A stretch of 64,000 nucleotides of DNA. It comes from Candidatus Kuenenia stuttgartensis. GTDB taxonomy: Bacteria; Planctomycetota; GCA-002687715; CAIWVZ01. Where the stretch lies: contig CAMARR010000003.1 of assembly GCA_945860915.1 (NCBI GenBank), forward strand, positions 58,535-122,534, read 5' to 3'. The notes below the pieces were generated by a model that made no database searches, was not told the origin of the DNA, and saw only the letters and a list, made by a program, of their open reading frames with translations. Positions 2,890-33,108 of this stretch are shown here, one piece after another. Every line of letters begins with the position of its first letter. Within the stretch, counting starts at the first letter, position 1. The position numbers were made by a program, and so were the translations under genes.

Positions 2890-4500
2890 TCAGAAGGTAT
2901 AGGTCACGATGTTGGACTGGGCGGATTGCCCGCCCGGCAGCATTTGGACCGACCTTGCTTGCACTGGCAACGTAAAGCCGATGGTTCCGGCCGGTAGCGT
3001 AAACGAATACGTTCCGGTTGGCGATGCCGTCGCCCACATTGGGGCGAGTCCGGGAGCATTGACGAGGTTAAGGAACGCCGTCGAATCCAGCCCGAAGAAA
3101 GGACCAGTGCCAGCCGGCGCCAATTGGACAAAGGACACAAGGTTGTAAAGCGGCTGGTTCGCCTGGGCGCCGGTGACCTGTAGGTTCAGTCCACCCGGTG
3201 CCGGTTCGTTCAGAATCAACGTGAATCGCGGCAGTTGGATAAAGACCTTGTAGCCCGTGCAGAGCCCATAGACCATGTCTTTAAAACCGTCGCCATTGAG
3301 GTCGACCGTCGCGATGTCGTGCGTACCAACCGTGTGGAAGTTCTGGAGATTCGTGCCATACGGGTCCGTCAATATCACCGAAGCCGTCGGTGTATTCTCG
3401 AGCAGGGTGGCGTGACGATTGCACCCGGGAACATCGACATCGGTGTCCGCCATCACGAGGTCGTTGTCGCCGTCATTGTCGATGTCGACAAGATAAGCGT
3501 TGCCCGCGAAATTGGCGGTTCCCGGCGAATATCCAGGAGCCCCCACCGTGCTGTTCAAGACCGTGGTCGTAAACGACAACGATTGGGAACCGTTTGGAGT
3601 CGTATTGAGCAAGTAGGCATCCTGCCCATCGCGGCCCTGGTAGATGTCGAGCTTGCCATCGTTGTTCAGATCGCCGACCTGCATGGTGTAGGTCGCAGCG
3701 GTCGGGGCGAGATACAGGTTCGGGAACACGCCTGAACCGTTGTTCAAGCGGATCTTCATCTGTCCGACGGTTCCGTCTGACTCAACGATGTCGTTGAATC
3801 CGTCGTTATTCATATCGACGATCGCCGCTTCTACAGAGAAGGTGGACGATGACCCGCCAGGAATGCGTGTGCTCGTCTGATCGACAAAGTGACCCGTGCC
3901 ATCGTTGATGAGGAGTCGATCTTCGAGCGTATTGTTGTAGTCGCCGAGATAAAGGTCGTTATCGCCATCGCCATCGAGGTCGCCGTGCGCCATGGAACAG
4001 AATCGGCCGCCCGGCGTGAATACCGGGATTCGGCTATTCTCAATTACGAGGCCCTGCCAGACTCCGCCAATCGCGCCCAAATTGCGGTAGTAGTGCGCCG
4101 GTTGGAAGTCCGTGTTGGCAATGACGACATCCTCCCAGCCATCGCCGTCGAAGTCCGCGGCAAGGACCGAACGCCCCAAGGACGGATTCGCGATGAAGCC
4201 AGGAGCGAATGTCGCCGTGAGGTCGGTCAAGACGCCGTTGACGTTCATGAGCAACATGTGCGTGCGGTTTCCGGCCCCATAGAAGCCTTCCTTGCGCACA
4301 TTCAGTAGATCCTGATCACCGTCGTGATCGATATCGATAAGCCAGAAGTCCTTTTCTTCAGGATCGGTTGTAGCGAGTCCGCCCGTCAAGGATAGGCGAG
4401 ATCCTGTTGAGTCCGAGAATTGGACCCACGCAGACTGAGCCAGAAGCGCCGGTGCGAGCGTTACGACGATCGCCGCGGCACGGATGAGTTGCTTACGCAT
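2890..4500 (-). CDS. Secreted FG-GAP/VCBS-repeat beta-propeller protein with orphan C-terminal domain
   Basis: Signal peptide ending ALLA|Q; about seven DxDxDGxxD repeats (DIDHDGDQD, DFDGDGWED, DLDGDGDND, DMNNDGFND, DLNNDGKLD, DIDNDGDND, DLNGDGFKD); ~110-aa tail ending SNIVTYTF. Confidence 0.85.
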   Translation of the reverse strand: MRKQLIRAAAIVVTLAPALLAQSAWVQFSDSTGSRLSLTGGLATTDPEEKDFWLIDIDHDGDQDLLNVRKEGFYGAGNRTHMLLMNVNGVLTDLTATFAPGFIANPSLGRSVLAADFDGDGWEDVVIANTDFQPAHYYRNLGAIGGVWQGLVIENSRIPVFTPGGRFCSMAHGDLDGDGDNDLYLGDYNNTLEDRLLINDGTGHFVDQTSTRIPGGSSSTFSVEAAIVDMNNDGFNDIVESDGTVGQMKIRLNNGSGVFPNLYLAPTAATYTMQVGDLNNDGKLDIYQGRDGQDAYLLNTTPNGSQSLSFTTTVLNSTVGAPGYSPGTANFAGNAYLVDIDNDGDNDLVMADTDVDVPGCNRHATLLENTPTASVILTDPYGTNLQNFHTVGTHDIATVDLNGDGFKDMVYGLCTGYKVFIQLPRFTLILNEPAPGGLNLQVTGAQANQPLYNLVSFVQLAPAGTGPFFGLDSTAFLNLVNAPGLAPMWATASPTGTYSFTLPAGTIGFTLPVQARSVQMLPGGQSAQSNIVTYTF

Positions 4501-4547
4501 CGAGATTTCTCCAAAAAAACAAGCCTGCGCGAAATGCGCCGCGCAGT

Positions 4548-5543
4548 TCAGAATGTGATGTTCGAAGCCGGTGTCACCTGCGACACCGCGCCACCAACGA
4601 TGGCAATGGCAATGTAATCAACGCTCAAGCCCGCGGGAATACCAAAGGGCCCGATTTGGAATACGCCCGCCCCGTCGAGATTGACATGCCAAGGGACCGT
4701 CCCTAGAGGGGACATGGCCTGCTCAAGCACCAACGAGTCGAAAGCGATTCCAAACAATGGCCCGCTCCCAGTCGGTAGCGAGAGATTCAGTGCCACGAGA
4801 TTGAAGACTTCTGCCCCGGGCAAAGCCGGTGCGTTGGTCTTCATGATCCAATTTCCCGGCCCAGACGGGAGGAATGAGAGAGAGAGCGGCGGAATCACCA
4901 CCGAGGACGACAAGGTGACTTTGTCCACATATCCAAATGACGGGACCGCGGTGTCGCCGCCGTTACCCACGTAGACGCGAAGTGTGATGGGTGTCGTCGT
5001 GGTAATCGTGGGGAAAAGCGTCACGAGATTCTGAGATAGAGTGATCTTCCCCGTGCAAGGACGATTGCTGCAAACCATGGTGGTTGGGAACGAACCGGCC
5101 GTCGTGTCGACCAAGTAAATCGTCTGGGTAGTTGCACCAACTGTCACCGTCACGGCCATGAAGTCGTTCCACGATGGGTCGCCCGGGTTCTCTCCGGTCG
5201 CGAACGCGACGTCAAGCGTGAGCAACGATCCCGCCGCTCCTATAGTGAACGTTGACTCGATCTTGCTCACGCCTGTGAACGCTGTGAGCGTTCCCATGAC
5301 GCTTGACGTCAGCCGCGTCCACTTGGCACCGTCACTTGGAAATCCAACGTCCGTTGCGCACGAGAGGTAAGGCAGGATCCGGGTAGCGCTGCCGCCCGTC
5401 GAAACGGAACTAGACCAACCCGCAGGCATAACTGTCCCGCCTGCCACCGCGGACTCGAATGAACCATTTTGAACTTGGCCCAATGCTGTGACGCACGAGG
5501 TCGCCGCCAGAATCGCGAGTTTGAACAACGACATAGGGATCAT
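4548..5543 (-). CDS. Secreted hypothetical protein (NGSFE beta-sandwich-like domain plus C-terminal domain)
   Basis: Start ATG 5543 overlaps the upstream TGA (ATGA); signal peptide ending TALG|Q; QNGSFE start typical of CBM-like/choice-of-anchor domains; tail ends SNITF. Confidence 0.75.
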   Translation of the reverse strand: MIPMSLFKLAILAATSCVTALGQVQNGSFESAVAGGTVMPAGWSSSVSTGGSATRILPYLSCATDVGFPSDGAKWTRLTSSVMGTLTAFTGVSKIESTFTIGAAGSLLTLDVAFATGENPGDPSWNDFMAVTVTVGATTQTIYLVDTTAGSFPTTMVCSNRPCTGKITLSQNLVTLFPTITTTTPITLRVYVGNGGDTAVPSFGYVDKVTLSSSVVIPPLSLSFLPSGPGNWIMKTNAPALPGAEVFNLVALNLSLPTGSGPLFGIAFDSLVLEQAMSPLGTVPWHVNLDGAGVFQIGPFGIPAGLSVDYIAIAIVGGAVSQVTPASNITF

Positions 5544-7195
5544 GGGGTATACGTGGTCACCAACAGTCCATTCGTTGTCGACACGAAGTCTGACACCGAA
5601 GGGTCTATGACAAGCCACTGGAAGAAAAGGGAAGCATCATTAACTGCCGGATCATAGGGGATTGGCAAGCCCACCGACGCAAATCCCGCACCCGGGACCC
5701 CAATTGGGCCAGAGAGCGTCATCGGGATCGAGAATAGGAACGGACTTGCAGGGTCAAGATTCAATGGAACCGTGTTGTACATAGTCCCAGGGAACGCAGG
5801 GGTATCGGCCATCACGAAGTACGCGGACGCGCCGCCGAGCGCTCCTGAGAGCCCGAGGCGGAACTGACCATTCCCGAGATTTGGGGTCAATGGAGACACG
5901 TGGGTCGGAGTGAATCCGCCAGACCCCATCTTGGCTGTCCCGTAGTTCGTGAAGTACGAGGGAGACTCCGAATTGAGGGTCGGCCGATCGAACGGGAACT
6001 GCCCCAACAGAACACGAGGATCTGTGAGCCCATTCTGAACGAAGTCGGCAATGGCGATGCGTTGCGAGTGGTTTAACGGAACCGGAACCATGCGCGGGTC
6101 AAGCGACGCTTGATTCGGAAAATCTCCGCCAAGAGAATAGAAGAGGACGACGTCCAACATCGTCTGCATTCCTCCATTGTGGAAGAACGGTGCTCGCAGT
6201 CCCGCATTGCGCAGCGACGGGACACGAAATGCATTGCGGTCCATCGGATTCAACGTCACGGCCTCGCGGCCTGCATCTTCGGTTCCGGGACGGACGCCGA
6301 TGTTCGCAAACGAGTGATCTGTGAAGAGCGGCGCGATGTGACACTGCGCGCAATTGGCAATTCCATTGAACAGATTCATGCCGAGGATCTGTTGCGGCGT
6401 AAGAGCCGTCAGATTGCCGTTCGTGAAGTCATCAAACGGAGTTCCGTCTGGGACCAGCGTGCGCTCATACGTCGCGATGGCCATGCCGATACGAGCGGCC
6501 GAGATGGTCGGCGTCCCGAACGCGGATTGAAACAATGCCGGATAGGTGGGGTATTGCACCAACGCGGCGGCCATGGCTGCTGGTAAGTTGCGAGCAAACT
6601 GAAGCGGAACTGCGGTAGCGAGCTTCGCGTTGAGGTCACCGAAGTTGCGCGACGAGCAAGCCATTTCAACGTTGGACAGGACTGGACCGACTGCCTGACT
6701 CTCGAGAGCGCCGCCCCATGGAATGACAACTTGGTTGGTCTCCGGATCGGTGAACGTTCCGCTCGCACGACCGTCCCAGAAGAGTTCGTCAGCCCACTGA
6801 ACGCCTATGAACGATGGAGACTTGCGCCCGGTTACTTGGGGCTTAGGAAAGAAGTAAGGATCGGGTGCGAATTCGCCGGTCGAGTTGCAATGAACAATCC
6901 CTCTCGATCCACGGATGTCGTCAGCTGAACCAAAGATTCCGTCTGGGCCCGGATGGATGTTGCCGGGAGTCGATGTTCTCGGGTCACCACCGCCGACGGC
7001 TGGTATGTGACACGTTCCGCACGCCGTCGAATTGTCGCTTGAAAGCTGCTCTTCCCAAAAGAGGATCTTGCCCAACATGGCCTTTTCAGCCGTGATGGGG
7101 TTCTGGGCCGACTGAGGGACCGGTGGCATCTGAGCCAACAGCGCACCCGAGACGACCGACAACGCAACAAAGGCCCTGTAGAGGGTCCGAATCAT
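5540..7195 (-). CDS. Di-heme cytochrome c peroxidase/MauG superfamily protein with C-terminal extension
   Basis: Two CxxCH motifs (CGTCH, CAQCH), FWDGRA, Q-x2-GP-x4-EM, VPSLRN...PFFHNG; signal peptide ending ALLA|Q. Confidence 0.9.
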   Translation of the reverse strand: MIRTLYRAFVALSVVSGALLAQMPPVPQSAQNPITAEKAMLGKILFWEEQLSSDNSTACGTCHIPAVGGGDPRTSTPGNIHPGPDGIFGSADDIRGSRGIVHCNSTGEFAPDPYFFPKPQVTGRKSPSFIGVQWADELFWDGRASGTFTDPETNQVVIPWGGALESQAVGPVLSNVEMACSSRNFGDLNAKLATAVPLQFARNLPAAMAAALVQYPTYPALFQSAFGTPTISAARIGMAIATYERTLVPDGTPFDDFTNGNLTALTPQQILGMNLFNGIANCAQCHIAPLFTDHSFANIGVRPGTEDAGREAVTLNPMDRNAFRVPSLRNAGLRAPFFHNGGMQTMLDVVLFYSLGGDFPNQASLDPRMVPVPLNHSQRIAIADFVQNGLTDPRVLLGQFPFDRPTLNSESPSYFTNYGTAKMGSGGFTPTHVSPLTPNLGNGQFRLGLSGALGGASAYFVMADTPAFPGTMYNTVPLNLDPASPFLFSIPMTLSGPIGVPGAGFASVGLPIPYDPAVNDASLFFQWLVIDPSVSDFVSTTNGLLVTTYTP

Positions 7196-7352
7196 GAGGC
7201 AACTCCAAAACGCGCCCGCGTTCAGATATGCGGAGTTTACCGCAGAGGTCGTCAGAATCCGAAGGTCTTTTATTGAGCGAGAGAATGTCTCAACGGAACG
7301 GCAGGAGGGAAGGACTCTTCCATTCGTCGCAGACGCTCAATTCGGGATAAAC

Positions 7353-8810
7353 CTACTGAAAGGTAAGGGTTTGCGATGGCGCGAGCCGAAGTTCGGACGG
7401 GCCAGCCCCAATTCCCTGCATGATGAGAGTCAGACTGAGCAGAGCTGGGTCATACGGAATCGGGATTCCGATTTGCACCTCTCCAGATGGGCCCATCGGT
7501 ATCCCGGAGAAGAGCTCGACATAGGTCCCTGGCAGAGGATCAAAACTCAGAACACCATACGGAGCCACAGAGATGGCAGCCGGTATCGCGCCAACATATA
7601 CCGAAACTAAATTGGCCGGAGACGACTCGATGACGAGGTTCGCGGTTTGCCCAATCAAGAGTGGAACCGATGTGAACTGCGCCGAGGTCCCCTTCAGAAA
7701 CGCGATCGCTCGCGGACTGCCGATGTCAAACGCTGCCGCTGTGTCCGTATACACGTCCACTTTCTCTCCGACATCCTGAGCATCGCCATCGTTGTTTACG
7801 TCTCGCATGAAATAGATGCGATCCGGGGTGGTGTCCTCAACAACCGCAATCAGGCCGTCCCCTATGGCGCAGGTCCACATGCTCGACGGCGCTCCGACAG
7901 TAAAGAAAGTCGATTCCTCCGTGCCTAACGAAATCAGATTATTGCTGTCGATGTCGCGTGCCTTCAGCACCCGCTCAAAGCTCGTATCCGTCACAAACGT
8001 GGTTCCATCTCGATCCACGGCTAGGCCATACATGATCGTCGCAGCGGCCGATGGGGGTGAATACCAAAGTGTAATCTCGCCGGGGTCGTTGCAGTGTCCG
8101 TTTGGGATGACATCGTCGTGAAGACGCCAAACGCCACGGGGAATTGCGCCCACAGCACTTTGGCTCCCAGTCTCGGTATAGAGGATGCTTCCGTCGGGCA
8201 GAATCCCTAGATTCGTTGGGACAGAAGCGCCAATCGAAGCGTTCGTAAACGTGGCGTAGATGGTGCACTCTCCTGCGTCAAGTGCATCGCCATCGTTGTT
8301 GAGGTCGACGAACTTCAAGATGTCGTCGAATCCCGCGCCAGCCGCCGACGAATTGAAGTTGGCGACATATACCGCGCCGTCCAACGAGACGACCATCCCG
8401 TAGATGCTCGGTGCAGGCACTGGCGTTGCTGAAAGACTCGGCGTGTACCAGACCCTCGCTTCACCTAAGCCCATGCAATCGCCGTTTCCATCGAGATCTT
8501 CAAGCCTGAGAATCGCATCCGCGGTTGCGTCAGCGACAAAGACCACGTTGCGACGATCGACAGCGATGGCCGTCGGAAATCCGAGTGTGACCGTCCCCAC
8601 GACGCCTTGAACATAGACGGTGACTTCGCCCGCATCGTTGAGGTCGCCGTCGAGGTTGAGGTCCGCAAGTCGGAGCACTCTTCCTATCCCCGTATCGGTG
8701 ACCAGTAAGTCGCCTGCGTGCGTGAAGGGGGTCATCGCGGGGGGTACTTGGGCAAAGATGGCCGGCGCCAACGTAAGGGCGGCTCCGAACAAGGAAGCGA
8801 TGTGATTCAC
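7353..8810 (-). CDS. Secreted six-repeat beta-propeller-like protein with C-terminal domain
   Basis: GTG start 8810 with GGAG upstream; signal peptide ending AIFA|Q; six D-x-N-x-DGD-x2-D-x-GE-type repeats; tail contains GIPIPYDPA. Confidence 0.75.
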   Translation of the reverse strand: MNHIASLFGAALTLAPAIFAQVPPAMTPFTHAGDLLVTDTGIGRVLRLADLNLDGDLNDAGEVTVYVQGVVGTVTLGFPTAIAVDRRNVVFVADATADAILRLEDLDGNGDCMGLGEARVWYTPSLSATPVPAPSIYGMVVSLDGAVYVANFNSSAAGAGFDDILKFVDLNNDGDALDAGECTIYATFTNASIGASVPTNLGILPDGSILYTETGSQSAVGAIPRGVWRLHDDVIPNGHCNDPGEITLWYSPPSAAATIMYGLAVDRDGTTFVTDTSFERVLKARDIDSNNLISLGTEESTFFTVGAPSSMWTCAIGDGLIAVVEDTTPDRIYFMRDVNNDGDAQDVGEKVDVYTDTAAAFDIGSPRAIAFLKGTSAQFTSVPLLIGQTANLVIESSPANLVSVYVGAIPAAISVAPYGVLSFDPLPGTYVELFSGIPMGPSGEVQIGIPIPYDPALLSLTLIMQGIGAGPSELRLAPSQTLTFQ

Positions 8811-8960
8811 CGAGAAACTCCAAATTGGGTCGAGGCCTGCGAAAAAGTGGCTCGGTAATCGCGTGCAGCGACCACCCATGCGCCGATCGCGCGTCAGAGT
8901 AGATTAGCGATCCGGCAGTCCGACTTGAACGGAATGCGCGTCGTTTTGAAAGACCATTTC

Positions 8961-8977
8961 CGTGACAATTCGTCACG
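8961..8977. promoter_or_regulatory. Inverted repeat CGTGAC-N5-GTCACG, possible transcription-factor site
   Basis: Perfect 6-bp arms in the intergenic region upstream of the secreted-protein cluster. Confidence 0.25.
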
Positions 8978-9020
8978 ATTCGACATTTTGGCTCAGGAAT
9001 TCTCGAAGAAACCGCCGATC

Positions 9021-9122
9021 AGTCCGGGTGCCGATCGGCGCAAGTTCCTTCTCGCAGGGGAATCCCGTGCAGGGTGTACGGGATGAGGGGAGCAGGCGCC
9101 GATCGCATTTTGTACCTGGGCT
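9021..9122 (+). ncRNA. Candidate structured RNA (long imperfect hairpin), family unknown
   Basis: Four stacked helices: 9021-9031/9112-9122, 9032-9041/9096-9105, 9044-9053/9085-9093, 9062-9070/9076-9084. Several G-U pairs form only on the + strand. Confidence 0.4.
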
Positions 9123-9152
9123 CGACGCCATCAGCAGGCACGAGGCCCGCCG

Positions 9153-12100
9153 TCACCCCAGAGCCCCCCCGCATCGCCCGGCCGAAAGGTGCTCGCAAGA
9201 CAGGCACAGTTGCGGGTCGGACGTCTTAGGGAATCCAGCCCGGGCCGCTCCGGAAAGCACACGGAGGCTCGATTCCGCCGCTTCGAGTTCTGATGCCCCG
9301 ACCACGTGCACTTCGGAACCGAGTGCTGTAAAGAAAAGAAAACCCTCTACAGGCCGACCCAGAATTCGCCTTGCCGCAACGCAATACAAAGCCACCTGGG
9401 ACCGATATCCCTTCTTCTCGATCGACGTCCTCGCTTCACCAAGGTCTCGAGCGACATCAGACTTAAAGTCAATCACATACGCGGGGCCGTCGCCAGCTGG
9501 TGCGTAGAGAAGATCCATCGTCCCCATCACCGGAAGCCCCTCGATGTCGAGTGACACCGTCAACTCGCTCCGCACTTCGCCTAGAAGTGCGTTCCTAATC
9601 TTCTGCCCGAGGTCCCACGCAAGGAAGCCAGTCTCGGCACGCATGACAAGCGCTCGGATGTCTTCGACATGACGTCGTTCAAAAATGCCTGCGCTTTGAC
9701 ATGCCCAATCAACATCTTCAGAAGGTAGGCGTCCGGCCGCGAGCGCTTCGAACGCCGCGTGAATGGCGTTGCCTCGCATGGTGGGAGACAGGGATCGAGC
9801 ATGAGTCGAATCTGCGCTGACGTTGTGCCCGAGATACGCCTTGCTCGCCGGTGCGCCGAGCCCTTGTTCCAAAAAGAACTTACGAGGGCACCCCATCGCC
9901 GTTGCGAAAGCTGTTGGCCTAAGCGGAACTCGATACATGAATTCGAGTCGAGGCCGTGCTTCCCCCACTCCGATCTCAATACTCTCCAAGATCCCACGCA
10001 AGTCCTTCCTCGCGTGGCCGTCCAGCTCCGTCGCTCCTTCGCACTTTTTCACCAGCACAAGCGCGCCTTCCATGCCTAGTATGGGAACTTCGATTTCCGG
10101 GACATCGAGCTGTGCATTCAATGCAGACAGGACAGACGCGAGCGCACCCTTAGCGCGCTTTTGTCCGGCATCGCTCCCGACCAAGACAAGGTGGTCCTGT
10201 GCACGCGTCACCGCGACGTAGAGGAGCCTGGCGGATTCGGCCCTCCCCTTTGCCTTCTCGACGGATGCAGCCAACGAAGAGAGCTTGCAGGCTTGTTTGC
10301 TATCTCGCGACTTGAGCGGCACAACAAGCTGCACCTCGTCGGCTGAAACCCTAAAGCGGATTGGATCCAAACTTGGCCCCGACACCGTCACGGTGTCGCC
10401 CAACCCAACGAGGATGACGATGGGAAACTCAAGTCCCTTCGATCCGTGGGTCGTCATGATCGTGATGGCGTGCTCTTCGCTCGGAGGGTCCGCTTGAGAC
10501 GTCTTGGTGTCCTCCTCGATCAACGCGCGAAATTCACGTGCCAAAGTGGCGAACGAGGCGTCGCCCTCATCCTCACGAGATTGGACAACCCTGATGAGCT
10601 GATCCACATTTGCTTCGGAACGACCTGACGGGTCAAGCTGGCCAAGGCTAAACCGCAACGAGCTCTCCCGTATCACGACGTCGAGCAATGCCGAAGCCGG
10701 CAAAACGCCGGATAGGTTTCGCCACCGATCGAGGAGAGCGAGTGCCTCTTCGAGAGAACTGCGCTCCTCCACCGTCAGGAGCGTCGTCGCGTCGCGAGCG
10801 CATCGCGTCAACTTTTTCCAGAGGCTTCCCTTCGAGCGCGCGGCACAAGCTTTGGCGAGGATGGTGTCCGAGAGGCCGACCATGAGAGAGCGAACAAGTC
10901 CAAGAGTAGCTGCCGAATCCTCGACATCTGCTACCCACGCAAGCAACGCACAACACTCCTTCACCTCCGGACGCCCGTAGAAACCCGTACCGGAAATCGT
11001 TCGAAACTTGAGGGCTCGACGTGCAAGCGCTGTTTCAAGAGATTCCAATCCTGTGCGCTTCGCCATTAGGACCGCAACATCGTTCGCCTTCGCTGGACGA
11101 ACGCCTCCATTGCCGTCATGAACTTGCCAGCGGTCGAGAATCTCCGTTTCGATCAACTCAGCGACATGGCTCATCTCGGCACGACGTGCCGCCTCACGAT
11201 GAATTCCACCAAGGACTCGAACTTCAATGTGAGAATGGACCGAGATTCCATCGGTGCGACGCGACACCATCGGAGACGATGCGGATTCAAAAGGCTCGGC
11301 TGTCTCGTCCCGATCTGGATCAGGGAAAATCTCTCGACTCAGCTGATTCGAGAATCCAACGAGCGCAGCCGTGGAACGGTAGTTCTCGTTGAGCTCGACG
11401 ACCGCAGCTCCGTCGCGGCTCTTATCGCGGATAATGCCCGTCGCAAGTCGAAATGTTTCGACATCTCCCTCCCTGAAGCGATAGATGGACTGCTTGTCAT
11501 CCCCAACGATGCAGACTCCATCCAAATTGGGCGAGAGAGCATTCACGAGCCTCCATTGCCGAGGGTCGGTGTCTTGAAACTCGTCAACCAGCACGTGTTC
11601 AAATGTAGGGCTTGCCTCGCTGCGAGATTCCAGCCTAGACAATGCGTGGTCTATCAAACCCTCGAAGTCGATGCGATTCTCGGCACGCATGCGCTGTTCC
11701 AGCTCGGGCACGCAGTGGAGATAGAGGCGAGCGAGCGCTTTCTCCAATCCGAGATCATGGTGCACCTTCAACTTCGCGATTCCGCCATCGTCCGTCCAGG
11801 CCCCGAGGACCTTCTCCGAGACAGCGAGCAACTCTCGGAATCTGGCCTTCCATGGCCCATCCTTCAATGCCGCGGTTGGTGCTGGTTTGCCTTCGTCAAG
11901 GACTGAACGCCGCAGGCTCATCGCTGTTTCCAGGTCGTCCGCAGTAAAATTGAGATTCATCAATACGTGACGTAACGCGGTGATCGACTCGATGACAACC
12001 TTCGAGCGAGAGGCGCGGGAGAATTTGATCTCGCTGAAGGCCGTAACGCAGTCGAGCTGCGCAGCCATCTGCATGCGGCACGCTGAGTCGTTACTCACTT

Positions 12101-23970: not shown

Positions 23971-24037
23971 GTTCGTCGTGCCCCATCGAGGAGCGATCAC
24001 ATTCTACGAAAGATCCCGATCCAACTCGGAGCGAAAG

Positions 24038-24778: not shown

Positions 24779-24853
24779 CGGCAAGATGGGTCGCGCCGAG
24801 GCACGCTACCAAGGTCCGCGAATCTCGGCGAGGGGTGCTATCGTGCCGGTCTC

Positions 24854-26077
24854 ATGCCTAAGAAGGACATCGGATTCGAGCTCTTGAACACGGACGGTAC
24901 CGCCCGCCGTGGCAGATTCCGAACTCACCACGGGACAGTCGACACCCCGACTTTCATGGCCGTCGGCACACAAGGTGCCGTTAAGGCAATGACACCCGAC
25001 CAAGTCCTCGCAACGGGTGCTGAGGTGGTGCTCGCGAACACCTTCCACCTCGCGCTCGAGGATCGTCGAGAACTCGTGAAGCGCGCCGGAGGCCTTCACA
25101 AGTTCATGGCGTGGGACAAGACGATTCTTACAGACTCGGGTGGATTCCAAGTGTTTTCGCTACCCGACAAGACCATCACTGATGAAGGGGTGACGTTCCG
25201 TTACGAGCGCGATGGAAGCCCCACGGTTCTCAACCCAGAAACGTCGATGGCCATTCAACGCGACCTCGGCGCAGACATCGTCATGGCGTTCGATGAGTGC
25301 TGCCCTCCCGATTCCCCTAAGCCCTATGTCGTAAAGAGCATTGATCGTACCACGCGGTGGGCCAAGCGTTGCCGCGACTTTGACCTCGCTCCGCATCAGT
25401 TTCTCTTCGGCATTGTCCAAGGCGGTCTGTTCGACGACCTTCGCCGTCGCAGCGCGGAAGCGCTCACCCAAATCCCATTCGACGGTTACGCCATCGGTGG
25501 TGTCAGCGTGGGCGAGGGCTTCGATATGCTCGTCAAAGTGACGCGGCTGACCGCGCCGCTCCTTCCGCCTAATCTGCCGCGCTATCTCATGGGGGTTGGG
25601 CTCCCCGAAGATCTACTGTCGTGTATTGAGCACGGTATTGACATGTTTGATTGTGTCATCCCGACCCGCTACGCCCGCGGCGGAACGTTGTTCACTCGAA
25701 CAGGCAAACTCCGGCTTTACGACAAGAAGTATCGCCGAGACCGCTATCCCATCGATACGGCGTGCGGGTGCTACACCTGCTCGAAATTCTCACGAATGGT
25801 GCTCCGCCACCTCTACTACGCGCGCGAACCACTCTTCGAGACACTCGCTTCCATCCACAATGTCCACTTCTATGAGGACTTGATGCGCGACTCTCGAACC
25901 GCCATTGAGCAGAACGGTTTTTCGACGTTCAAGACGTCGTGGCTCGCCCGGTACGGATTCGATCCCGTTTTGAAGCGCGAGACGCGTGAGCGCGAACATC
26001 GCGTGGATCCTCGTGAGGACTTCCGCACACTTCACGCCGAACGCGATGGCCGTCGTCGCGATGAGGACGCTAGGTGA
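24854..26077 (+). CDS. tgt: tRNA-guanine transglycosylase
   Basis: TPTFM-x-VGT, NTFHL, LTDSGGFQVFSL, GIVQGG, RYLMGVG, DMFDCV, zinc site CGCYTC...H. Confidence 0.95.
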   Translation: MPKKDIGFELLNTDGTARRGRFRTHHGTVDTPTFMAVGTQGAVKAMTPDQVLATGAEVVLANTFHLALEDRRELVKRAGGLHKFMAWDKTILTDSGGFQVFSLPDKTITDEGVTFRYERDGSPTVLNPETSMAIQRDLGADIVMAFDECCPPDSPKPYVVKSIDRTTRWAKRCRDFDLAPHQFLFGIVQGGLFDDLRRRSAEALTQIPFDGYAIGGVSVGEGFDMLVKVTRLTAPLLPPNLPRYLMGVGLPEDLLSCIEHGIDMFDCVIPTRYARGGTLFTRTGKLRLYDKKYRRDRYPIDTACGCYTCSKFSRMVLRHLYYAREPLFETLASIHNVHFYEDLMRDSRTAIEQNGFSTFKTSWLARYGFDPVLKRETREREHRVDPREDFRTLHAERDGRRRDEDAR

Positions 26078-26931
26078 CCTACGCGCTTCTCGACTCGGGC
26101 GATGGCCGCAAGCTCGAGCGCGTGGGCCCGTATCTTCTCGATCGGCAGGCTCCCGCGGCCATCTGGAAGCCACGACTTCCCATCGGTGAATGGAATCGCG
26201 CAGACGCCGTCCACCATCGTTCAGACAAGGGTGGTGGCTCTTGGGAGTTTCGCACGAAGCTTCCCGAAAAGTGGGAAGCGGTATGGGGTGGATTCACCTT
26301 CATCGTGAAGCCGACGCCTTTTGGCCATATTGGACTCTTCGCCGAACACGCTGCGCGTTGGAAGTCCCTGGCCCAATCAGTGAGCGCGGCCACGGTACGC
26401 CTTGGTCGACCGCCAGACATCCTGAATCTCTTCGCTTACACTGGCGGTGCCACGATGGCCGCTTCCCGAGCCGGCGCTTCGGTGTGCCATGTAGATGCAG
26501 CGAAGGGCGTTGTCGACTGGGCGCGCGAACACGCCGCCCGCAACAGCCTCGGCGAGCGCCCTATTCGTTGGATCGTCGATGACTGTTCCGAGTATCTGGC
26601 TCGCGAAGCTCGGCGTGGCCGACGTTACGACGGGATACTCTTTGACCCCCCCTCGTTCGGACGAGGGTCGCGTGGCGAAGTCTGGAAGATCGAAGATGGA
26701 ATCCATACTCTTCTAGATCTCTGCGTCGGCGTCCTTAACCCGGACCCCGCCTACGTCCTGTTCACATGCCATACCCCCGGGTTCACCCCTACGGTCCTCG
26801 GCGAGCTCCTTGCCGAGCGAATCGCGGGTTTCCCCGGGCAAAAGACGTCCGGAGAGATGCTCATACCGGAGAAAACCGGTCGCTCACTTCCCTCCGGCTC
26901 ATTTGCAGAGTGGGCCCAAACAGGCGACTAG
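26074..26931 (+). CDS. Class I SAM-dependent methyltransferase (RlmI/RlmK-like)
   Basis: LLDSGDGRKLER, LNLFAYTGG, HVDAAK, DPPSFGRG; GTGA overlap with tgt. Confidence 0.85.
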   Translation: MTYALLDSGDGRKLERVGPYLLDRQAPAAIWKPRLPIGEWNRADAVHHRSDKGGGSWEFRTKLPEKWEAVWGGFTFIVKPTPFGHIGLFAEHAARWKSLAQSVSAATVRLGRPPDILNLFAYTGGATMAASRAGASVCHVDAAKGVVDWAREHAARNSLGERPIRWIVDDCSEYLAREARRGRRYDGILFDPPSFGRGSRGEVWKIEDGIHTLLDLCVGVLNPDPAYVLFTCHTPGFTPTVLGELLAERIAGFPGQKTSGEMLIPEKTGRSLPSGSFAEWAQTGD

Positions 26932-27010
26932 CCAGAATCCTCCCGATTCATGGCACGCCGATAGTCCCTGAAAAGACCTAGCCCGGCCTCCGAATGGTTA
27001 GATTGCTGTC

Positions 27011-27601
27011 ATGCGAAAGATCCTAGGGATTGTCTTTCTTCTCTCGGCCACGGTCCTCATCGCGCACGGTCTCTTTTCAGAGGCCGAGGCGGAGCGCCGG
27101 ATGCCCGAAGTTGCCGCGACCACGGATGTCAACACCTTCCGTCGCGTCGCAATGGAATTCCCCTATTGTCAGGCCACCATCAACGCCCGACTGACGCACC
27201 TCAAAGCGGCCGAAGGAACTCTCGCCTACACGCGATTCATCGATTCACGCGAGTTTGCCCGAACCGTACTCTCTACACACAAGACGCTTCTCAACGGTGC
27301 ATCAGCCAAGCCACCGTACCTGACGCCGGAAGCCGCGGCGATCGTCGGGCTGCTCGCAATGTTCCTCGCGATTCTGCTGCCCGGCACTCGGTTCCGGTTC
27401 CTCGCATTCTTCGTGTTTTTGGGTTCAGTGTTCGCAGCGCTCGCTGCAAGTTTCCCGCCCGAAACACAGGTCGTCCTTTGCAGGGACATTGCCTATTCTA
27501 ATTTGGTGATCGCGTGGATGCCACGCATCGCACAAGGACTTATCGCACTCGCTGGCCTTCTCATCGTATTTGAGAAGGGGTCGAAGCCGGCCGCAGCATG
27601 A
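27011..27601 (+). CDS. Hypothetical multi-pass membrane protein
   Basis: Four hydrophobic segments; TAGATT box 6 nt upstream of ATG. Confidence 0.65.
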   Translation: MRKILGIVFLLSATVLIAHGLFSEAEAERRMPEVAATTDVNTFRRVAMEFPYCQATINARLTHLKAAEGTLAYTRFIDSREFARTVLSTHKTLLNGASAKPPYLTPEAAAIVGLLAMFLAILLPGTRFRFLAFFVFLGSVFAALAASFPPETQVVLCRDIAYSNLVIAWMPRIAQGLIALAGLLIVFEKGSKPAAA

Positions 27602-27663
27602 GCCCAATCCCGCCCACAACTCGCCCATTCAAACTTTCCATCCGCACGATTCGGAGTCTGATC

Positions 27664-29901
27664 ATGCAACGCCTCACTCTCGTCATCGCGTCACTCGCTC
27701 TTTGTCTGACAGTCGCTCAAGGGCAGAGCCTTGCCGATGTCATCCCCGCCGACACCCTCCTCTATGCGAAGCTCGTCGATCCGATCGGTGACTTCGAAAA
27801 ACTCAGTGGGTCCGGGGACGTTTGGGCGCGTCCTGACAAAGTCTCGTCCAAGTCCCGAAGCGCCACAGAGAAAAGCCTCAAGCGTGTCGACGAATCGATA
27901 GGCGTTCAGGGCGGAACCATGGACTCCTGGACTCGCGCCATCGGGTCCATTGAGATCGCACTTTTCTCGTTTGAGTTCGATTCCGAGTCATTTACTGGCG
28001 GCGGCGCGCCACCAACGCTCGACTTCGCTGCGATTCTCGAATCTCCGCTGGCGATCGAGATGTACAACCAATTCTCTGGCATGCTCATCGACTCTGGTGC
28101 CGGAACCCGCAACGAGCGCGGCGACATCGTGATCGATACCGGAGGCGAGCAACAGCCGCTGTTCAGCGTCCAAGGCACACGCATGATTCTCGCCGGCAAT
28201 GAAGATCGCCTCAACAAGGTAGTCGCGGCGTTCAAGCAGGGGCGCGATGTCAACCCACTTTCGGCAAGCGCCAACTTCAAAGCCGTGTGCGGTGCCTCGA
28301 AGGGCGCGCGCGTTGTCTACGGTCGGATGGGTCCGATCCTGCGCTTCATCTCGGAGAAACTCGACGACAGCGCGCGCGGCAGCATGGATAACATCCTCAA
28401 GCCGCTCGGCATGTACGACATCGATTCGGTGGGTTACTACGAAGATGGACCAAACGGCGTGATCACGATGAAAGGTGACAAGGACGTCAACCTATTCAAA
28501 CTCCTGAAGGGCGGAACGGCGACACCCGCGCTTCAAGGTCTTCTTCCCGAGGACACGGCCTTCGCATTAGGTCACGCAGCGAACTTCGCGGAGCACTATG
28601 GCCGTATCGAGGGCTTCTTAGTCGACCCCGCGACATTCCCGTTTGCGATGTTCGTGAGTGGCGGCCTCACGGGTCTCGTGATGCAAGCAGGACTCTCGCC
28701 CAAGGCGATCACCGAATCGATTAAGGAAGGATTCGCTGCGGCGCTCGTTCCAGACGAGAACGGTGACATCCAACCTCAGAATGCGTTGGTGATCCTTACC
28801 AAAGTGCCAGACCGTGCCGAGGCAGAGAAACTGCTCGACCGCGTCGGTAGGTCCTACGGCAAAGGCAAGGGAATTACGTACACGAAAGTTGAAGAAGGCG
28901 GAATCCTTTGGATGAAACCTGCGGATCCGAAGGCTGCAACTTCTCAACCTGCTCCGTCCGAAGGCGCTACCTCGCAACCAGCGACCACGCCTCCCGCCGA
29001 ACCACCTGCGAGATCGTCAACTCCCACGCAAGGTGAGACCGATGGTGGGCCGGAGCGTATCACCATCGGTGTGTCCATCGGCAACGAAGGCGGACTGCGC
29101 ACGGAAGTCGTCCGTGCAACTGATGACGCGCCGCAGGACGCCGAAAGCCGGCCGCGCAACTTCCGCGGACGCCGCAATACTCAACGGGCAATCTCGGAAG
29201 CGGACCGCAACGTGCTCGGCGCCTACGTCAATGGCTATGTGATTATGGGCAAAACAGTTCCCGTCAAGAAGGTCATCGCTTCGGTGACCGGCAAAGCCCC
29301 GACGCTCGCAGCAGCCGGTGCCTATGCGCGCCTTCCTCAACAAGCGACCTTCTTCGTCAATCTTGGACTTAAGTCCATCTTCAAGTCGATCCCCGATTTC
29401 GCCGGCGCATTCTCTTTGCTCAAGGGCACGCAGTCGATCGGCATTGCCGCCGTCGCAACGGACACGACCGTCACTATCACGTCTAACCGAGCGTCCGGTC
29501 AGCTTTGGGGCATCTTCGCCGCAGCCGGAATGGCGGGAGAACAAGACCGTGGCGATCGCACGGCAATTGTTGACGCGCTCCGCGATATTGGGAAGCGAAC
29601 CACTGACTACGCAGCGGCGAAAAAGGCGTGGCCAAAATCGCTCGCGGACCTCGGCTATCCTGCGGACAAGCCACTCGTCTTCGCCGATAGCGAGGGCAAG
29701 ATGAAGCCAATCGTATTCCTCCCTCCGAAGGGACCAGCGGACAAGCCGGACTCCGCATTTGGCACCAATGGCCAACGCGTTCTGTTGGCGTATTGGGATT
29801 CGATGGACATGGGACGCCTCTGCGTGAGCCTCGATGGCGGCGCGTGGGGTTGGAGCGAATCTGAATTCATCGGCGCCCTGCGTCGGTACAACGGGAACTG
29901 A
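27664..29901 (+). CDS. Secreted DUF3352-like hypothetical protein with Pro/Thr-rich insertion and pseudopilin-like C-terminal tail
   Basis: Signal peptide MQRLTLVIASLALCLTVAQ, ADVIPADTLLY start, LLPEDT repeat, ATSQP linkers, C-terminal DYAAAKKAWPKSLADL. Alternative start 27598. Confidence 0.65.
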   Translation: MQRLTLVIASLALCLTVAQGQSLADVIPADTLLYAKLVDPIGDFEKLSGSGDVWARPDKVSSKSRSATEKSLKRVDESIGVQGGTMDSWTRAIGSIEIALFSFEFDSESFTGGGAPPTLDFAAILESPLAIEMYNQFSGMLIDSGAGTRNERGDIVIDTGGEQQPLFSVQGTRMILAGNEDRLNKVVAAFKQGRDVNPLSASANFKAVCGASKGARVVYGRMGPILRFISEKLDDSARGSMDNILKPLGMYDIDSVGYYEDGPNGVITMKGDKDVNLFKLLKGGTATPALQGLLPEDTAFALGHAANFAEHYGRIEGFLVDPATFPFAMFVSGGLTGLVMQAGLSPKAITESIKEGFAAALVPDENGDIQPQNALVILTKVPDRAEAEKLLDRVGRSYGKGKGITYTKVEEGGILWMKPADPKAATSQPAPSEGATSQPATTPPAEPPARSSTPTQGETDGGPERITIGVSIGNEGGLRTEVVRATDDAPQDAESRPRNFRGRRNTQRAISEADRNVLGAYVNGYVIMGKTVPVKKVIASVTGKAPTLAAAGAYARLPQQATFFVNLGLKSIFKSIPDFAGAFSLLKGTQSIGIAAVATDTTVTITSNRASGQLWGIFAAAGMAGEQDRGDRTAIVDALRDIGKRTTDYAAAKKAWPKSLADLGYPADKPLVFADSEGKMKPIVFLPPKGPADKPDSAFGTNGQRVLLAYWDSMDMGRLCVSLDGGAWGWSESEFIGALRRYNGN

Positions 29902-31838
29902 CCATCGACCGGTCGAAGAACTCACGTCTTCTCACGGCGGGCGCCGCGATCCTCGCGACGTCCGCCGGTCTCGTTCTCTTATTCCCGCTTCTCCGCTTCC
30001 TGCTGATCTACTCGCGGAATGCCCTTCTTGCCGGAGACGGCGGCGATGACTGGCTCTATCTCTTCTATGTCGAAACCGGACTAGCGAAAATCCTCGGGAC
30101 CGACCCCCGCGCTCTCCTCAATGCCGGCTATTTCTTCCCAACACATGAAACCAGCCTGCTCTTTACCGAGCATCACCTCGGTTTCACCGCGCTCCTCGCG
30201 CCCTTAAAGGCATGGATACCTGACACTCTGCAGTTGATGAGCGTAGGCACCATCATCGCGATCGTGGGTGGGCTTGCCGGCACATTCGCTTGGTCGCGGT
30301 ATGTCGGCGCGACCCGCTTCGCATCGCTTGTGGCGACACTCGCATTCGCAGGATCGGGAGGCTTCCTCGCGTTGATGCCACGACCGTTCTTTTGGGCCAT
30401 CGGATTAGTGCCCGTAGTCGCCATGCTCGCTAGTCAAGTTGCGAGGAAGCCGACGATTGCCCGCGGCCTCGCGTTCGGTCTCGTGCTCGGCTACCTCGGC
30501 TGGTGCTCCTCACACCTCGCGGTCATGGGCGCGGTCTTCGCAACCCTTGGGCTCTTGGTTCCAACTACCGACTCGGAGGAGCCGTTGCCGCGTTTCACGC
30601 GGCGCGCGGGCGCGATGCTTGCCCTCGGATGCCTCGTTGCTTTGGCCGTCGTTGCCCCGTTTGCGGTCCCTCAAGCAAGTACCCTCATGAGCAACGGATT
30701 CGAGCGATCACTTTCAGATCAAGCTCGCGAGGTCCCATCAGTTTCGGGCCTTGTGGGCACCCCTTGGATGGCGACTCGACGTTGGCTTGAGTCCACGTTC
30801 CAGATCGCTCCACCGCAAGGAGAAGTGTTCTCCGGGATGTCGCCATGGCTTGCGCTCGCGCTGATCGTTGCCGCTGGAATTGCCCTTTGCAAAGTCAGTC
30901 CCCGCGTTGGGTCGCGCCCAATTGGCCCGGCGCTCATCGTCGGCGCCATCGGTACCTGCCTCGCGTGGCTCGTTCCCGAGGAGATTGCAGGCATCGCGGT
31001 CGATCGGCCTGCCACCGCCATTACGTACGGAATCGCCGGCCTCATGAGTGTTCTTCTGTGGCGCCGCCTTGCTGAAGTCGTACGCTCGCCCTTTGGCGCG
31101 GCAACGATGGCTACATTCCTCCTTGCATGCATGACGCTTGGCCCAATGCTGAGGACGGATCACGGCGCGATCCCCACCCCAGCATTGCTCGTGTGTCGCC
31201 TCCCGGGGCTCTCAGCAATCCGGCTTTCGGCGCGCTGGGGAATCGTGATGAACCTCGCTGCCGCAGGTGCGTTTGCCGCCGCATTGACGTCAATTCGGCG
31301 AGCGAGCCTTCGCGGTGCAGCCTGTCTCCTCGCGGCGTTCCTTATCAGCTACGACGTTGTCCAAGAGAACCACTTCGACGCGGAGATGCCTTTCCCGCAA
31401 CAATCGAAGCTAAGCGAACGCGCGGTCGATCGCATCCTGAAGGCACTTCCGCGTGAGGGCGCTGTGATGGAGCTCCCATGGCTGGATGGACCAAAGGAGG
31501 TTCCGCGCATGATGGCGATTCACTTCCACGGTCGGCCGCTGGTCAACGGATACGCAGGTATGGTTCCAGCGTTCTTCGCGTATCACGCGGCACAGTCGGC
31601 GCCGGCGCTCATCAATGGTCGCACGCCCAATGACTACGAGTTCTCAAGCTTCCGCGCGTTCGGAGCGCGGTACTGGGTCATTCACCTCGACCGCATGCCG
31701 CCAAGCGCGGAGGCCACCTGGAGACAACCCCGCACCCCATTGAACGTCGTCGCTGAATGCGACGGGGGCCGCACCCTCATACTTGAGGATCCGGCCCCTT
31801 CAATTGCGAGTCTGACGGACCTGCCGTCGTCACGCTAG
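29898..31838 (+). CDS. Polytopic membrane protein, GT-C/YfhO-like; probable non-canonical CTG start
   Basis: Frame is open from 29865 with no ATG/GTG/TTG until 30234. The extension encodes a TM helix, GDGGDD and NAGYFFP...LLFTEHHLG. CTG 29898 overlaps the upstream TGA. C-terminal AVMELP...HGRPLVNGY. Confidence 0.7.
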   Translation: MTIDRSKNSRLLTAGAAILATSAGLVLLFPLLRFLLIYSRNALLAGDGGDDWLYLFYVETGLAKILGTDPRALLNAGYFFPTHETSLLFTEHHLGFTALLAPLKAWIPDTLQLMSVGTIIAIVGGLAGTFAWSRYVGATRFASLVATLAFAGSGGFLALMPRPFFWAIGLVPVVAMLASQVARKPTIARGLAFGLVLGYLGWCSSHLAVMGAVFATLGLLVPTTDSEEPLPRFTRRAGAMLALGCLVALAVVAPFAVPQASTLMSNGFERSLSDQAREVPSVSGLVGTPWMATRRWLESTFQIAPPQGEVFSGMSPWLALALIVAAGIALCKVSPRVGSRPIGPALIVGAIGTCLAWLVPEEIAGIAVDRPATAITYGIAGLMSVLLWRRLAEVVRSPFGAATMATFLLACMTLGPMLRTDHGAIPTPALLVCRLPGLSAIRLSARWGIVMNLAAAGAFAAALTSIRRASLRGAACLLAAFLISYDVVQENHFDAEMPFPQQSKLSERAVDRILKALPREGAVMELPWLDGPKEVPRMMAIHFHGRPLVNGYAGMVPAFFAYHAAQSAPALINGRTPNDYEFSSFRAFGARYWVIHLDRMPPSAEATWRQPRTPLNVVAECDGGRTLILEDPAPSIASLTDLPSSR

Positions 31839-31845
31839 GTTCGGC

Positions 31846-33108
31846 TCATTGAGCCGTGGCACTCACTCCGTTCGAGATGAGTGCGATGCCCGATGGCGCG
31901 CCCTCCTCATACACACAGAGGGCCAGTCGGAATCCGATGCCTGCCACTGCGGGGTGCGTTGGCACCGCGAAGAAGCCCGTCGCATGGCCGGCACCATTGA
32001 GCGCTCCGTAGAAGTTGGTGAACCATGTGGGACTGGGCGAAAGGACGTTCCACATGAACAACTCGTCTACCGCAACCGGGAGAACGCGCATGTCGTTGGC
32101 ATCAAGATAGTCTCCCATCAGCGTGTCGCCGCCGCCCGAGAGTGAAATCACCGCTTGGTAGTACGCGCCTGGGTATTGCGGCGCATTAAACGCGACCGGT
32201 ACCACGGCGCCACGCACGAGCGCGCTGCCGAGCGTCAATTCCTCGAATCGGAAGCCATTGACGAGAGTCGAACTCAGTCCATTGCACGTCAACACGACGT
32301 TGACAGGACCCGTCGCAGTCATAGCGGACGGCGTAACGAATGTCATCGTCGAGCTGTTAAGCACCGTCACGTCAATCGCCGGGATCCCACCGACGGTCAC
32401 CGTCGTCGCATTCGATGTGAGATTGGAACCAGTCACCGTCACGGTCGTACCACCCACAGCCGAGCCCGATACCGGGAACACGGACCCAAGGCTCGGCGTA
32501 GCGACGCCGTAGATCGCACGGGCGCCACTGATGTCGTCGGCGTCGAGGGTACGGAGCGCAGTCGAGCCTGCGGCAACGCTGGGGTACATTGAAGCGCTCG
32601 GCACTGCACTATGGTCAAGACCCAGCGCATGGCCGAACTCGTGAACCGCAACCGACCTGATGTCGAACTGCGACGCAGTTGGATTTCGCGCCCACACGAA
32701 GTTAGTGAGCCCGTCCTTAGCGTAGTACTCAATATCGAATTGAAGTGCCACGCCACCGACAGACCACCAGTAACAGATGGCGAGTGCGCCATTGCCATCG
32801 GTCGGGCTGTAGTGAACGGAATTCACACCGTCGTAGGCGACAGAGGCTACCGACGACGTACCCGTGTAGTTGAAGTCAAACGGAACCTGCGCTTGTTGAT
32901 GCCACGCAGAAGCTCCCGCAGTCACTTCTGCAACCTGCTGGGTCGGCGTGCCGGCCGCGGCGCCTGGGAAGTTGGGGTTCACGACATAGGAGACCGCTGA
33001 TGAGTTCCAGTGGATTCCGGTCAATGAGTAGGCTGACACCTCTTCGCGATGTGCGACGAAGAGTGCGCCAGAAGCCAAGGCCAAGGTGAGGATGGCGTTG
33101 ATTTTCAT
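31846..33108 (-). CDS. Matrixin (M10) metalloprotease with IPT/TIG domain and C-terminal domain
   Basis: HEFGHALGLDH zinc motif, SMYP Met-turn, P-x-SG-x3-GGTTVTVTGSN (IPT); signal peptide; ATG 33108 with AGGAG. Confidence 0.9.
   Translation of the reverse strand: MKINAILTLALASGALFVAHREEVSAYSLTGIHWNSSAVSYVVNPNFPGAAAGTPTQQVAEVTAGASAWHQQAQVPFDFNYTGTSSVASVAYDGVNSVHYSPTDGNGALAICYWWSVGGVALQFDIEYYAKDGLTNFVWARNPTASQFDIRSVAVHEFGHALGLDHSAVPSASMYPSVAAGSTALRTLDADDISGARAIYGVATPSLGSVFPVSGSAVGGTTVTVTGSNLTSNATTVTVGGIPAIDVTVLNSSTMTFVTPSAMTATGPVNVVLTCNGLSSTLVNGFRFEELTLGSALVRGAVVPVAFNAPQYPGAYYQAVISLSGGGDTLMGDYLDANDMRVLPVAVDELFMWNVLSPSPTWFTNFYGALNGAGHATGFFAVPTHPAVAGIGFRLALCVYEEGAPSGIALISNGVSATAQ

Follow-up and report, generated by a model that had tools for sequence, protein, structure and literature searches.

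Terminal beta-sandwich domains on unrelated exported proteins of Planctomycetota: two probably related families and a candidate docking or retention role

Here we have followed up five proteins encoded in a 64-kb stretch of contig CAMARR010000003.1 (64,000 nucleotides, hereafter the window), part of a metagenome-assembled genome (MAG) of the Planctomycetota, each of which ends in a tail that the original prediction, made from the letters alone, took for a shared orphan domain acting in export or surface anchoring. Profile searches confirm these tails as members of a very large, unnamed and clade-restricted superfamily of predicted terminal beta sandwiches, which divides into two sequence families, here called A and B. 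The tail probably tethers or sorts exported proteins in some lineages of the phylum. As the tentative explanation that we prefer, with a rough probability of 0.45, we propose that it is a handle by which Sec-exported proteins are docked or retained, tolerant of its position in the protein.

The five genes lie where they had been predicted, carry the quoted motifs as written and differ in their Pfam cargo. Four of them form a minus-strand tandem (8879-7353, 7195-5540, 5543-4548 and 4500-2890), the fifth is separate, and these five are the only tail-bearing genes within the window:

2890 to 4500, minus strand: P0001 gene (536 aa), signal peptide, FG-GAP propeller (FG-GAP_3, 6e-29) and type A tail
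2893 to 3234, minus strand: type A tail of P0001, about aa 423-536, ending ..YTF; genome profile match G000:C3:61427-61759, E 1.4e-28
4548 to 5543, minus strand: P0002 gene (331 aa from the ATG at 5543), signal peptide, cargo without a Pfam or NCBIfam family, and type A tail
4551 to 4895, minus strand: type A tail of P0002, aa 217-331, ending ..ITF; AF2 pLDDT 94.9, A profile 3.8e-28
5540 to 7195, minus strand: P0003 gene (551 aa), signal peptide, di-haem CCP/MauG/MbnH-like enzyme (CCP_MauG 3.3e-34, TIGR04039 1.4e-36) and type B tail
5543 to 5926, minus strand: type B tail of P0003, aa 424-551; AF2 pLDDT 90.7, B profile 1.3e-29
7353 to 8879, minus strand: P0004 gene (508 aa), propeller-like cargo (weak NHL-like matches) and type B tail
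7356 to 7694, minus strand: type B tail of P0004; B profile 4.1e-14, envelope 399-503 of 508
31846 to 33108, minus strand: P0006 gene (420 aa from the ATG at 33108), signal peptide, matrixin Peptidase_M10 (6.6e-17), IPT/TIG (7.6e-13) and type B tail
31849 to 32211, minus strand: type B tail of P0006, about aa 300-420; B profile 6e-12, P5-seeded profile 4.7e-25

The type A motifs read YNLVSFVQLAPAGTGPFFGL and FNLVALNLSLPTGSGPLFGI, with the endings SNIVTYTF and SNITF; those of type B read LPIPYDPAV..FFQ in P0003 and IPIPYDPAL..IMQ in P0004, and the matrixin P0006 has GAGHA..VPTHPAVAG..ISNG. No Pfam-A or NCBIfam model matches the last 110-130 residues of any of the five proteins at E<=1. Sec signal peptides, which had been predicted for all five, are canonical in four; the N-terminus of P0004 has a hydrophobic core ending ..FAQ but an atypical n-region, and its reading depends on the start codon chosen. 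Within the tandem, the start ATG of P0002 overlaps the stop codon of P0003 at 5540-5543 (ccATGAtc), and this ATGA overlap suggests that the two genes are translationally coupled. The tandem is followed immediately downstream, in the same orientation, by genes for a short DUF748/AsmA-like protein (286 aa, 1984-2844, minus strand) and an M48 peptidase (1119-1934, minus strand); no link to the tail could be made for either of these or for a neighbouring FGE-sulfatase protein in the window.

The relatedness of the tails was assessed in the host genome (G000; 2.37 Mb in 23 contigs, 59% GC, 87% complete), in which all open reading frames (ORFs) of at least 80 aa were searched with iterated hidden Markov models (HMMs) seeded from each tail (P1 to P5). 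Pairwise BLAST scores between tails are weak (31.6 bits for P1-P2, 33.9 for P3-P4, 28.5 for P3-P5). Seeds P1 and P2 retrieve the same 11 proteins, the type A family of this genome (independent E-values of 6.4e-20 for P0001 and 3.8e-28 for P0002), and seeds P3 and P5 retrieve overlapping sets of 34 and 28, the type B family, P0004 included (1.3e-29 for P0003, 4.1e-14 for P0004). With filters off, five further B members appear at E values of at most 5e-4, bringing the total to about 40; a sixth candidate, C1_475167, reaches only 0.013 in that search but 1.7e-17 with the P5-seeded profile. P0006, whose matrixin tail had been read as matching that of the peroxidase, falls into type B (6e-12) together with P0003. 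Altogether 51 of about 1,980 crude gene calls, or some 2.5% of the genes, bear a tail.

The two families are themselves linked. Between full-length alignments of A and B, hhalign returns a probability of 87.1% (E 4e-6) over 100 co-linear columns, superseding a value of 3% obtained when the A alignment lacked its C-terminal third, and in the ESM Atlas both tails have as neighbours the same two Planctomycetota clusters, both unnamed, one of 242 members (117 aa) and one of 63 (118 aa). Because of this full-length link and these common neighbours, we treat A and B as probable remote homologues. HMMs thus place all five proteins in tail families, but by their profiles the tails are two sequence families joined only at that level, and not the one uniform domain that had been envisaged. 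Among orthologues the tails diverge faster than the cargo (36-39% against 58% identity in the CCP enzyme, 23-38% against 47-56% in the matrixin), the P0006 orthologues of 419-432 aa retain the tail, and the conserved positions in the alignments are G, P, N, D and Q in turns.

The word orphan does not survive comparison with public data. Against 1.84 billion representative proteins, the B profile has 17,818 matches at E<=1e-3 and 1,307 at E<=1e-10. Literature searches turned up no description of the domain; the supplementary domain co-occurrence figures of PMC6461901 could bear on this point. The public tail proteins go by the name 'hypothetical protein' and come from Planctomycetota. Restriction to certain lineages and occurrence in multiple copies are borne out. 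B is present in 60 of 301 sampled Planctomycetota genomes, all or none by family: every genome is positive in families f1 (3/3), f2 (5/5), f3 (6/6), f8 (7/7) and f25 (6/6), and none in f7 (0/15), f15 (0/15), f24 (0/10) and f28 (0/10). Scored matches, counted up to 14 per genome, number at least ten in 48 of the 60 positive genomes and one to nine in the other 12, and first-look candidates reach 333 in one genome; the host genome has 11 A and about 40 B. Several of the positive genomes (G157, G033, G105, G119) are assembled in 1-10 contigs. Type A occurs in 23 of the 301, all of them B-positive, comprising all 16 genomes of the host's own order (the host included) and seven others. Elsewhere, one complete Phycisphaerales chromosome has two B matches, one Acidobacteria-labelled MAG outside the phylum has two, and one Polyangiales, one Eisenbacteria and one Pseudomonadales genome have none. 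Homologues of P0003 among GTDB species genomes likewise come overwhelmingly from Planctomycetota MAGs, the best two being 72% identical over all 551 residues.

In the host genome, 31 of the first 34 B members end 5-12 residues before the stop codon and three sit directly behind the signal peptide; over all copies, about 36 of some 40 are C-terminal and four N-terminal, and one protein (C1:441208-441807) consists of signal peptide and domain only. Among the best 150 of the 17,818 public matches, the domain ends within 12 aa of the C-terminus in 142, lies at residues 33-158 behind the signal peptide in five and lies elsewhere in three, and a second copy in the same protein is found in 0 of 149. 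One of these last three, P0137, is an Ig-repeat protein (immunoglobulin-like Big_9/He_PIG) whose match is probably generic, and a portion of the 17,818 is likely to be of this sort. Three short public proteins are clear stand-alone cases (signal peptide plus domain), and the other 29 proteins of fewer than 200 aa are possibly fragmentary. The type A search returned 41 public proteins, the window's own two included; of the remaining 39, 38 carry it C-terminally and one N-terminally, none of them twice. The last residue of a type A protein is aromatic in 37 of these 39 (W 24, F 13; set P0178-P0216) and in 9 of 11 in the host genome, for example at 2893-2901 and 4551-4559 in the window; type B tails follow no such rule. 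The tail is not confined to the C-terminus: besides the N-terminal copies (four of about 40 in the host genome, five of the best 150 public proteins), three homologues carry it internally. Internal occurrence had been named along with the original prediction as grounds for its refutation, and is thus observed in part.

The proteins that bear the tail appear to be exported, and their cargo is diverse. A crude script finds a hydrophobic, signal-peptide-like N-terminus in 46 of the 51 host proteins. By the same kind of script, these signal peptides end in ..A-Q or ..G-Q in 41 of 46 cases, compared with 248 of 691 other signal-peptide-like ORFs (examples in the window are 4435-4500, minus strand, in P0001, and 7130-7195, minus strand, in P0003), and in 63 of 81 public homologues whose N-terminus is hydrophobic. 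Non-tail proteins, too, have Q as their most frequent predicted +1 residue. These ends resemble the 'Q-rule', which PMC5837995 describes as Bacteroidetes-specific, without mentioning Planctomycetes. The type-I glutaminyl cyclase family PF05096 was not found in the host genome. On the 51 proteins we count 38 different Pfam families, among them CCP_MauG (five times), FG-GAP, LamG, LTD, PKD, beta-helix, M14, M10, Kelch, CBM_2, Amidase_3 and GSDH. Ten public B members scanned with Pfam carry trypsin, beta-helix, RCC1, FG-GAP or no known cargo, the tail itself never being matched; public type A cargo includes LamG, beta-helix, FG-GAP, PKD and CBM2 with GH18, and structure neighbours in the ESM Atlas add arylsulfotransferase, M14, reprolysin, DUF1028 and lactonase with CCP. 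As to individual enzymes, the five di-haem CCP_MauG/MbnH-like proteins with B tails include C3:64074-65729, C8:144136-145803 and C3:44360-46234, and a tail-bearing pair of 923 and 926 aa (C2:114804-120409) may match an Atlas cluster of lactonase with CCP_MauG of about 937 aa.

Our strongest argument comes from what stands at the position of the tail in homologues of the same cargo. For the di-haem enzyme P0003, we inspected how 31 homologues end and scanned ten of them with family models. Three (L089, L108, L093) end in type A C-terminal domains (CTDs) of the type IX secretion system (T9SS), with TIGR04183 scores of 38.1, 30.4 and 35.6 bits (cut-off 23) and FlgD_ig also above its cut-off. L117 ends in VPEP, a transmembrane (TM) helix and RRRR (NF038129 weak, 18.7 bits), L126 has an IPTL-CTERM-like end (PF18203 at 18.0 bits, below the 20.8 cut-off), L124 one that is IPTL-CTERM-like by eye, and L103 ends in a TM helix and a basic stretch. 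A further six (L105, L122, L125, L096, L116, L057) bear paired GDxNxDG..D..F repeats that look dockerin-like by eye, with no Pfam match at E<=0.01 in the two that were scanned; the Polyangia homologues L104, L106, L107, L112 and L119 have no tag at the B-tail position. NCBIfam naming has a term, 'choice-of-anchor', for such a pattern, and by this comparison of sequences the tail occupies the sorting or anchoring slot. We read the tail as a sorting or anchoring module because homologous cargo elsewhere bears known tags there. The matrixin does not supply a second case, its 38 homologues showing no known sorting tag.

Structure models assign the tail to a broad fold class. AlphaFold2 (AF2) predicts confident all-beta sandwiches for both types, with a predicted local distance difference test (pLDDT) of 90.7 and a predicted template modelling score (pTM) of 0.83 for B, and 94.9 and 0.85 for A, each built from 9-10 strand elements over 115-128 aa. 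Comparison with known structures, which had been suggested along with the original prediction, yields generic fold matches only. Against the PDB, Foldseek finds nothing at E<=1e-3 for either model, returning only generic Ig, FN3 and macroglobulin (MG) domains; an exhaustive VIA search with the B model peaks at Z 8.8, about the level that unmatched models reach, with LAIR1/LILR Ig domains and the MG domains of TEP1, CD109 and C3/C5 at Z 8.0-8.8; and PDB sequence profiles give no significant match (best E 0.17 for B, 0.038 for A). Among the weak fold matches are 3aqx (the beta-GRP N-domain, which binds beta-1,3-glucan; type A), 4iyk (a putative carbohydrate-binding protein) and CBM56. On these models the tail belongs to the Ig-like/macroglobulin-like beta-sandwich fold class.

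We propose that A and B are two branches of one unnamed Ig-like/macroglobulin-like superfamily, and that certain Planctomycetota lineages attach this module, once per protein and at a terminus, to unrelated Sec-exported cargo. After Sec export and folding, the module would act as a common docking or retention handle, binding a single receptor of the envelope common to all tail proteins, be it protein or surface glycan, and so keeping peptidases, redox enzymes, propellers and lectin-like proteins at the cell envelope. It would work in the manner of a dockerin or a surface-layer homology (SLH) domain and unlike a C-terminal signal of the T9SS type, which is threaded and then cleaved. Family membership, fold class, single terminal placement, diversity of cargo, clade restriction and occupancy of the slot of known tags are shown by the analysis; the binding, the receptor and the final location of the tail proteins are what we infer here.

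The comparison with dockerins, calcium-binding helical repeat pairs, is instructive on this point. Like the tail, a dockerin is a single terminal module on diverse exported enzymes, M14 and reprolysin included, is found at either end and has undergone lineage-specific expansions; the tail differs in being a predicted beta sandwich instead of helical repeats and in having no identified cohesin-like receptor. No Dockerin_1 match is found on the tails of the window proteins, whose models are all-beta. Dockerin_1 (PF00404) occurs in 106 of the 301 Planctomycetota genomes and has no match in the host genome; no B match occurs in any of the 31 dockerin-rich genomes (at least ten matches), and dockerin matches number no more than five in each of the 60 genomes with B. 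Fisher's test gives p 0.0013 for this exclusivity, with the proviso that the genomes are related and not independent, so that the complementary distribution of dockerin and B tail is suggestive. In other freshwater members of the phylum, a cohesin-dockerin 'planctosome' has been proposed to dock M14 and reprolysin-like peptidases on the outer membrane (PMC6461901), and these two cargo families bear the tail here, M14 among the 51 host proteins and both among the Atlas neighbours.

Several observations weigh against the docking handle. The fold matches are generic (best VIA Z 8.8; no Foldseek match at E<=1e-3), and the conserved G, P, N, D and Q turn positions look like fold determinants, with no obvious binding surface. 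Neither receptor, ligand, partner nor machinery was found: clustering the neighbours of the tail genes returned generic families and no candidate partner. An extracytoplasmic location was judged from signal peptides by eye and with a crude script. Several genomes have one or two copies only, a number as compatible with an accessory domain of certain enzymes as with a general tag, and both the all-or-none pattern and the exclusivity of dockerin and B tail may reflect phylogeny alone, related genomes not being independent. The Phycisphaerales homologue L057 (3755-5701) bears the B domain at 476-579 of 649 followed by a dockerin-like repeat pair, and because it has both, the two modules are not simply interchangeable. 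In two Acidobacteria-labelled homologues the B domain is internal (540-647 of 929 and 547-653 of 938) and is followed by FG-GAP/VCBS-like repeats, an arrangement that argues against a strictly C-terminal export signal and in favour of a folded docking or retention module.

The recurrent neighbours of the 51 tail genes are ABC ATPases, amidohydrolases, GT2, FG-GAP/ASPIC, sulfatase, PSCyt/PSD1/DUF1501 (PSCyt1, PSCyt2 and PSD1 together with DUF1501) and one family without Pfam assignment. L137 (G000:C2:160215-162359) and its paralogues C2:162557-164692, C2:172232-174121 and C3:157771-159615, a family of four, lie near tail genes and measure about 615-715 aa; L137, the one scanned member, has no Pfam match at E<=0.001.

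The best surviving alternative, which we consider unlikely, is an export or sorting signal, analogous to the T9SS CTD, whereby a lineage-specific outer-membrane translocon would recognise the folded C-terminal domain, export the cargo and possibly cleave or attach it. Roughly 90-95% of copies stand at the extreme C-terminus, one per protein; the phylogenetic pattern is all or none, with expansions to more than 300 first-look candidates per genome; T9SS CTDs occupy the same place on homologous cargo; and cargo such as the GH18+CBM2 chitinase-like proteins must act outside the cell. PMC11285876 describes the T9SS type A CTD as a compact seven-strand 3+4 sandwich with a conserved C-terminus, and the exact W/F ending of type A in 37 of 39 public members recalls the latter. 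We nevertheless favour docking over a strictly C-terminal, cleaved export signal, because N-terminal copies (four of about 40 in the host genome, five of the best 150 public proteins), internal copies with 70-280 aa of other modules behind them and stand-alone proteins without cargo exist; genomes with only one or two copies also argue against such a signal. Part of what had been predicted, a sorting or anchoring function, gains from the slot that the tail shares with known tags, but export across the outer membrane is a further step, for which no candidate machinery came to light.

Identity with the T9SS CTD itself can be rejected, and the distinction from T9SS and PEP-CTERM that the original prediction drew holds. 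The T9SS CTD is likewise a C-terminal beta sandwich found once each on many unrelated signal-peptide proteins, clade-restricted and in multiple copies per genome; the tail appears larger in the models, with 9-10 predicted strands over 115-128 aa compared with the compact seven-strand CTD (PMC11285876), and differs in its N-terminal, internal and stand-alone copies. The models TIGR04183, PF18962 and FlgD_ig (PF13860) find no match at E<=1 in the five window proteins, and T9SS CTD families are absent from the commonest 25 of the 38 Pfam families listed on the 51 tail proteins. A six-frame search of the host genome (87% complete) with TIGR04183 gave no match, nor did SprA (TIGR04189) in that genome or in the tail-positive G048, G099 and G033, while an Eisenbacteria positive control (G303) returned SprA at 349 bits and PorU at 584 bits in the same search; GldM (TIGR03517) had no match in the host genome in a search without a positive control. 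What GldK (TIGR03525) matches there are generic proteins of the FGE-sulfatase kind, with scores under the cut-off. The fold matches listed for the AF2 models contain no T9SS CTD chain, though the listing does not exclude one. PEP-CTERM and IPTL-CTERM tags, which depend on exosortase, stand in the position of the tail at the C-terminus of the cargo homologues L117, L126 and L124; they consist of a short motif, a TM helix and a basic cluster, unlike the tail, a soluble domain of about 120 aa that ends in beta strands and has no terminal hydrophobic helix. TIGR02595 (PEP-CTERM) had no match in the host genome in a search without a positive control, and a script found no recurrent C-terminus of TM helix and basic residues there.

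Profiling for co-occurring proteases had been suggested along with the original prediction, and one candidate was considered. In the host genome the PorU model matches nothing but a C25 peptidase, which scores 87.8 bits where the cut-off is 420. This protein (L147, G000:C4:41715-44402, minus strand) is a secreted protein of 895 aa with a gingipain/PorU-like catalytic domain (Pfam C25, 1.3e-54), in a genome without SprA. Homologues of its catalytic domain occur in 116 of the 301 genomes, full-length orthologues only in its own order (13 of the 15 other genomes). The peptidase is present in the tail-negative families f24 (8/10) and f28 (10/10) and in few genomes of the tail-positive f8 (1/7) and f25 (1/6), and because its presence does not track the tail across families it is not supported as a sortase or dedicated machinery of the tail.

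It is similarly doubtful, in our estimate, that the tail is the recognition domain of an undescribed Planctomycetota sorting or surface-display system, with its own receptor or translocon and tens to hundreds of client proteins per genome; such a system, with a chance no better than that, would be a functional parallel, by analogy, to both the T9SS CTD and the cohesin-dockerin pair.

Less probable again is a ligand-binding module of the carbohydrate-binding module (CBM) type, directing the cargo to an environmental polymer or particle instead of the cell. The tail shares with CBMs its single-copy, terminal beta sandwich on enzymes and the tolerance of either terminus, and the weak matches to 3aqx (the beta-GRP glucan-binding domain, matched by type A), 4iyk and CBM56 point the same way within a fold class common to CBM, MG and Ig-like modules. 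Yet there is no family-level match and no tandem arrangement; most cargo is not like carbohydrate-active enzymes, being di-haem peroxidases, Kelch, FG-GAP and RCC1 propellers and peptidases; some members already have CBM_2; the fold matches fall below the level that would mean more than a common sandwich; and conserved aromatic platforms are not evident in the A and B alignments. Least probable of all is a structural Ig-like spacer or stabiliser without targeting role, spread by domain shuffling within the clade, which the generic Ig/MG-like fold, the structural look of the conserved residues and the faster evolution of orthologue tails would fit, but generic Ig modules such as Big, PKD and FN3 are typically tandem and internal, unlike the tail, which never repeats (0/149 B, 0/39 A), is terminal in about 95% of cases, sits in the slot of known sorting tags in homologues and is kept by orthologues down to 42-50% identity.

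How proteins are placed on or beyond the outer membrane is poorly understood in Planctomycetota, and the lineages with the tail are lineages without T9SS and with few or no dockerins. The superfamily described here is a new domain family to be named in Pfam or NCBIfam. It yields at once a catalogue of proteins that are probably secreted or at the surface in uncultured members of the phylum, as well as a handle for finding a receptor or machinery. Should the tail prove to be a module for docking, it might also be put to use as a display tag.

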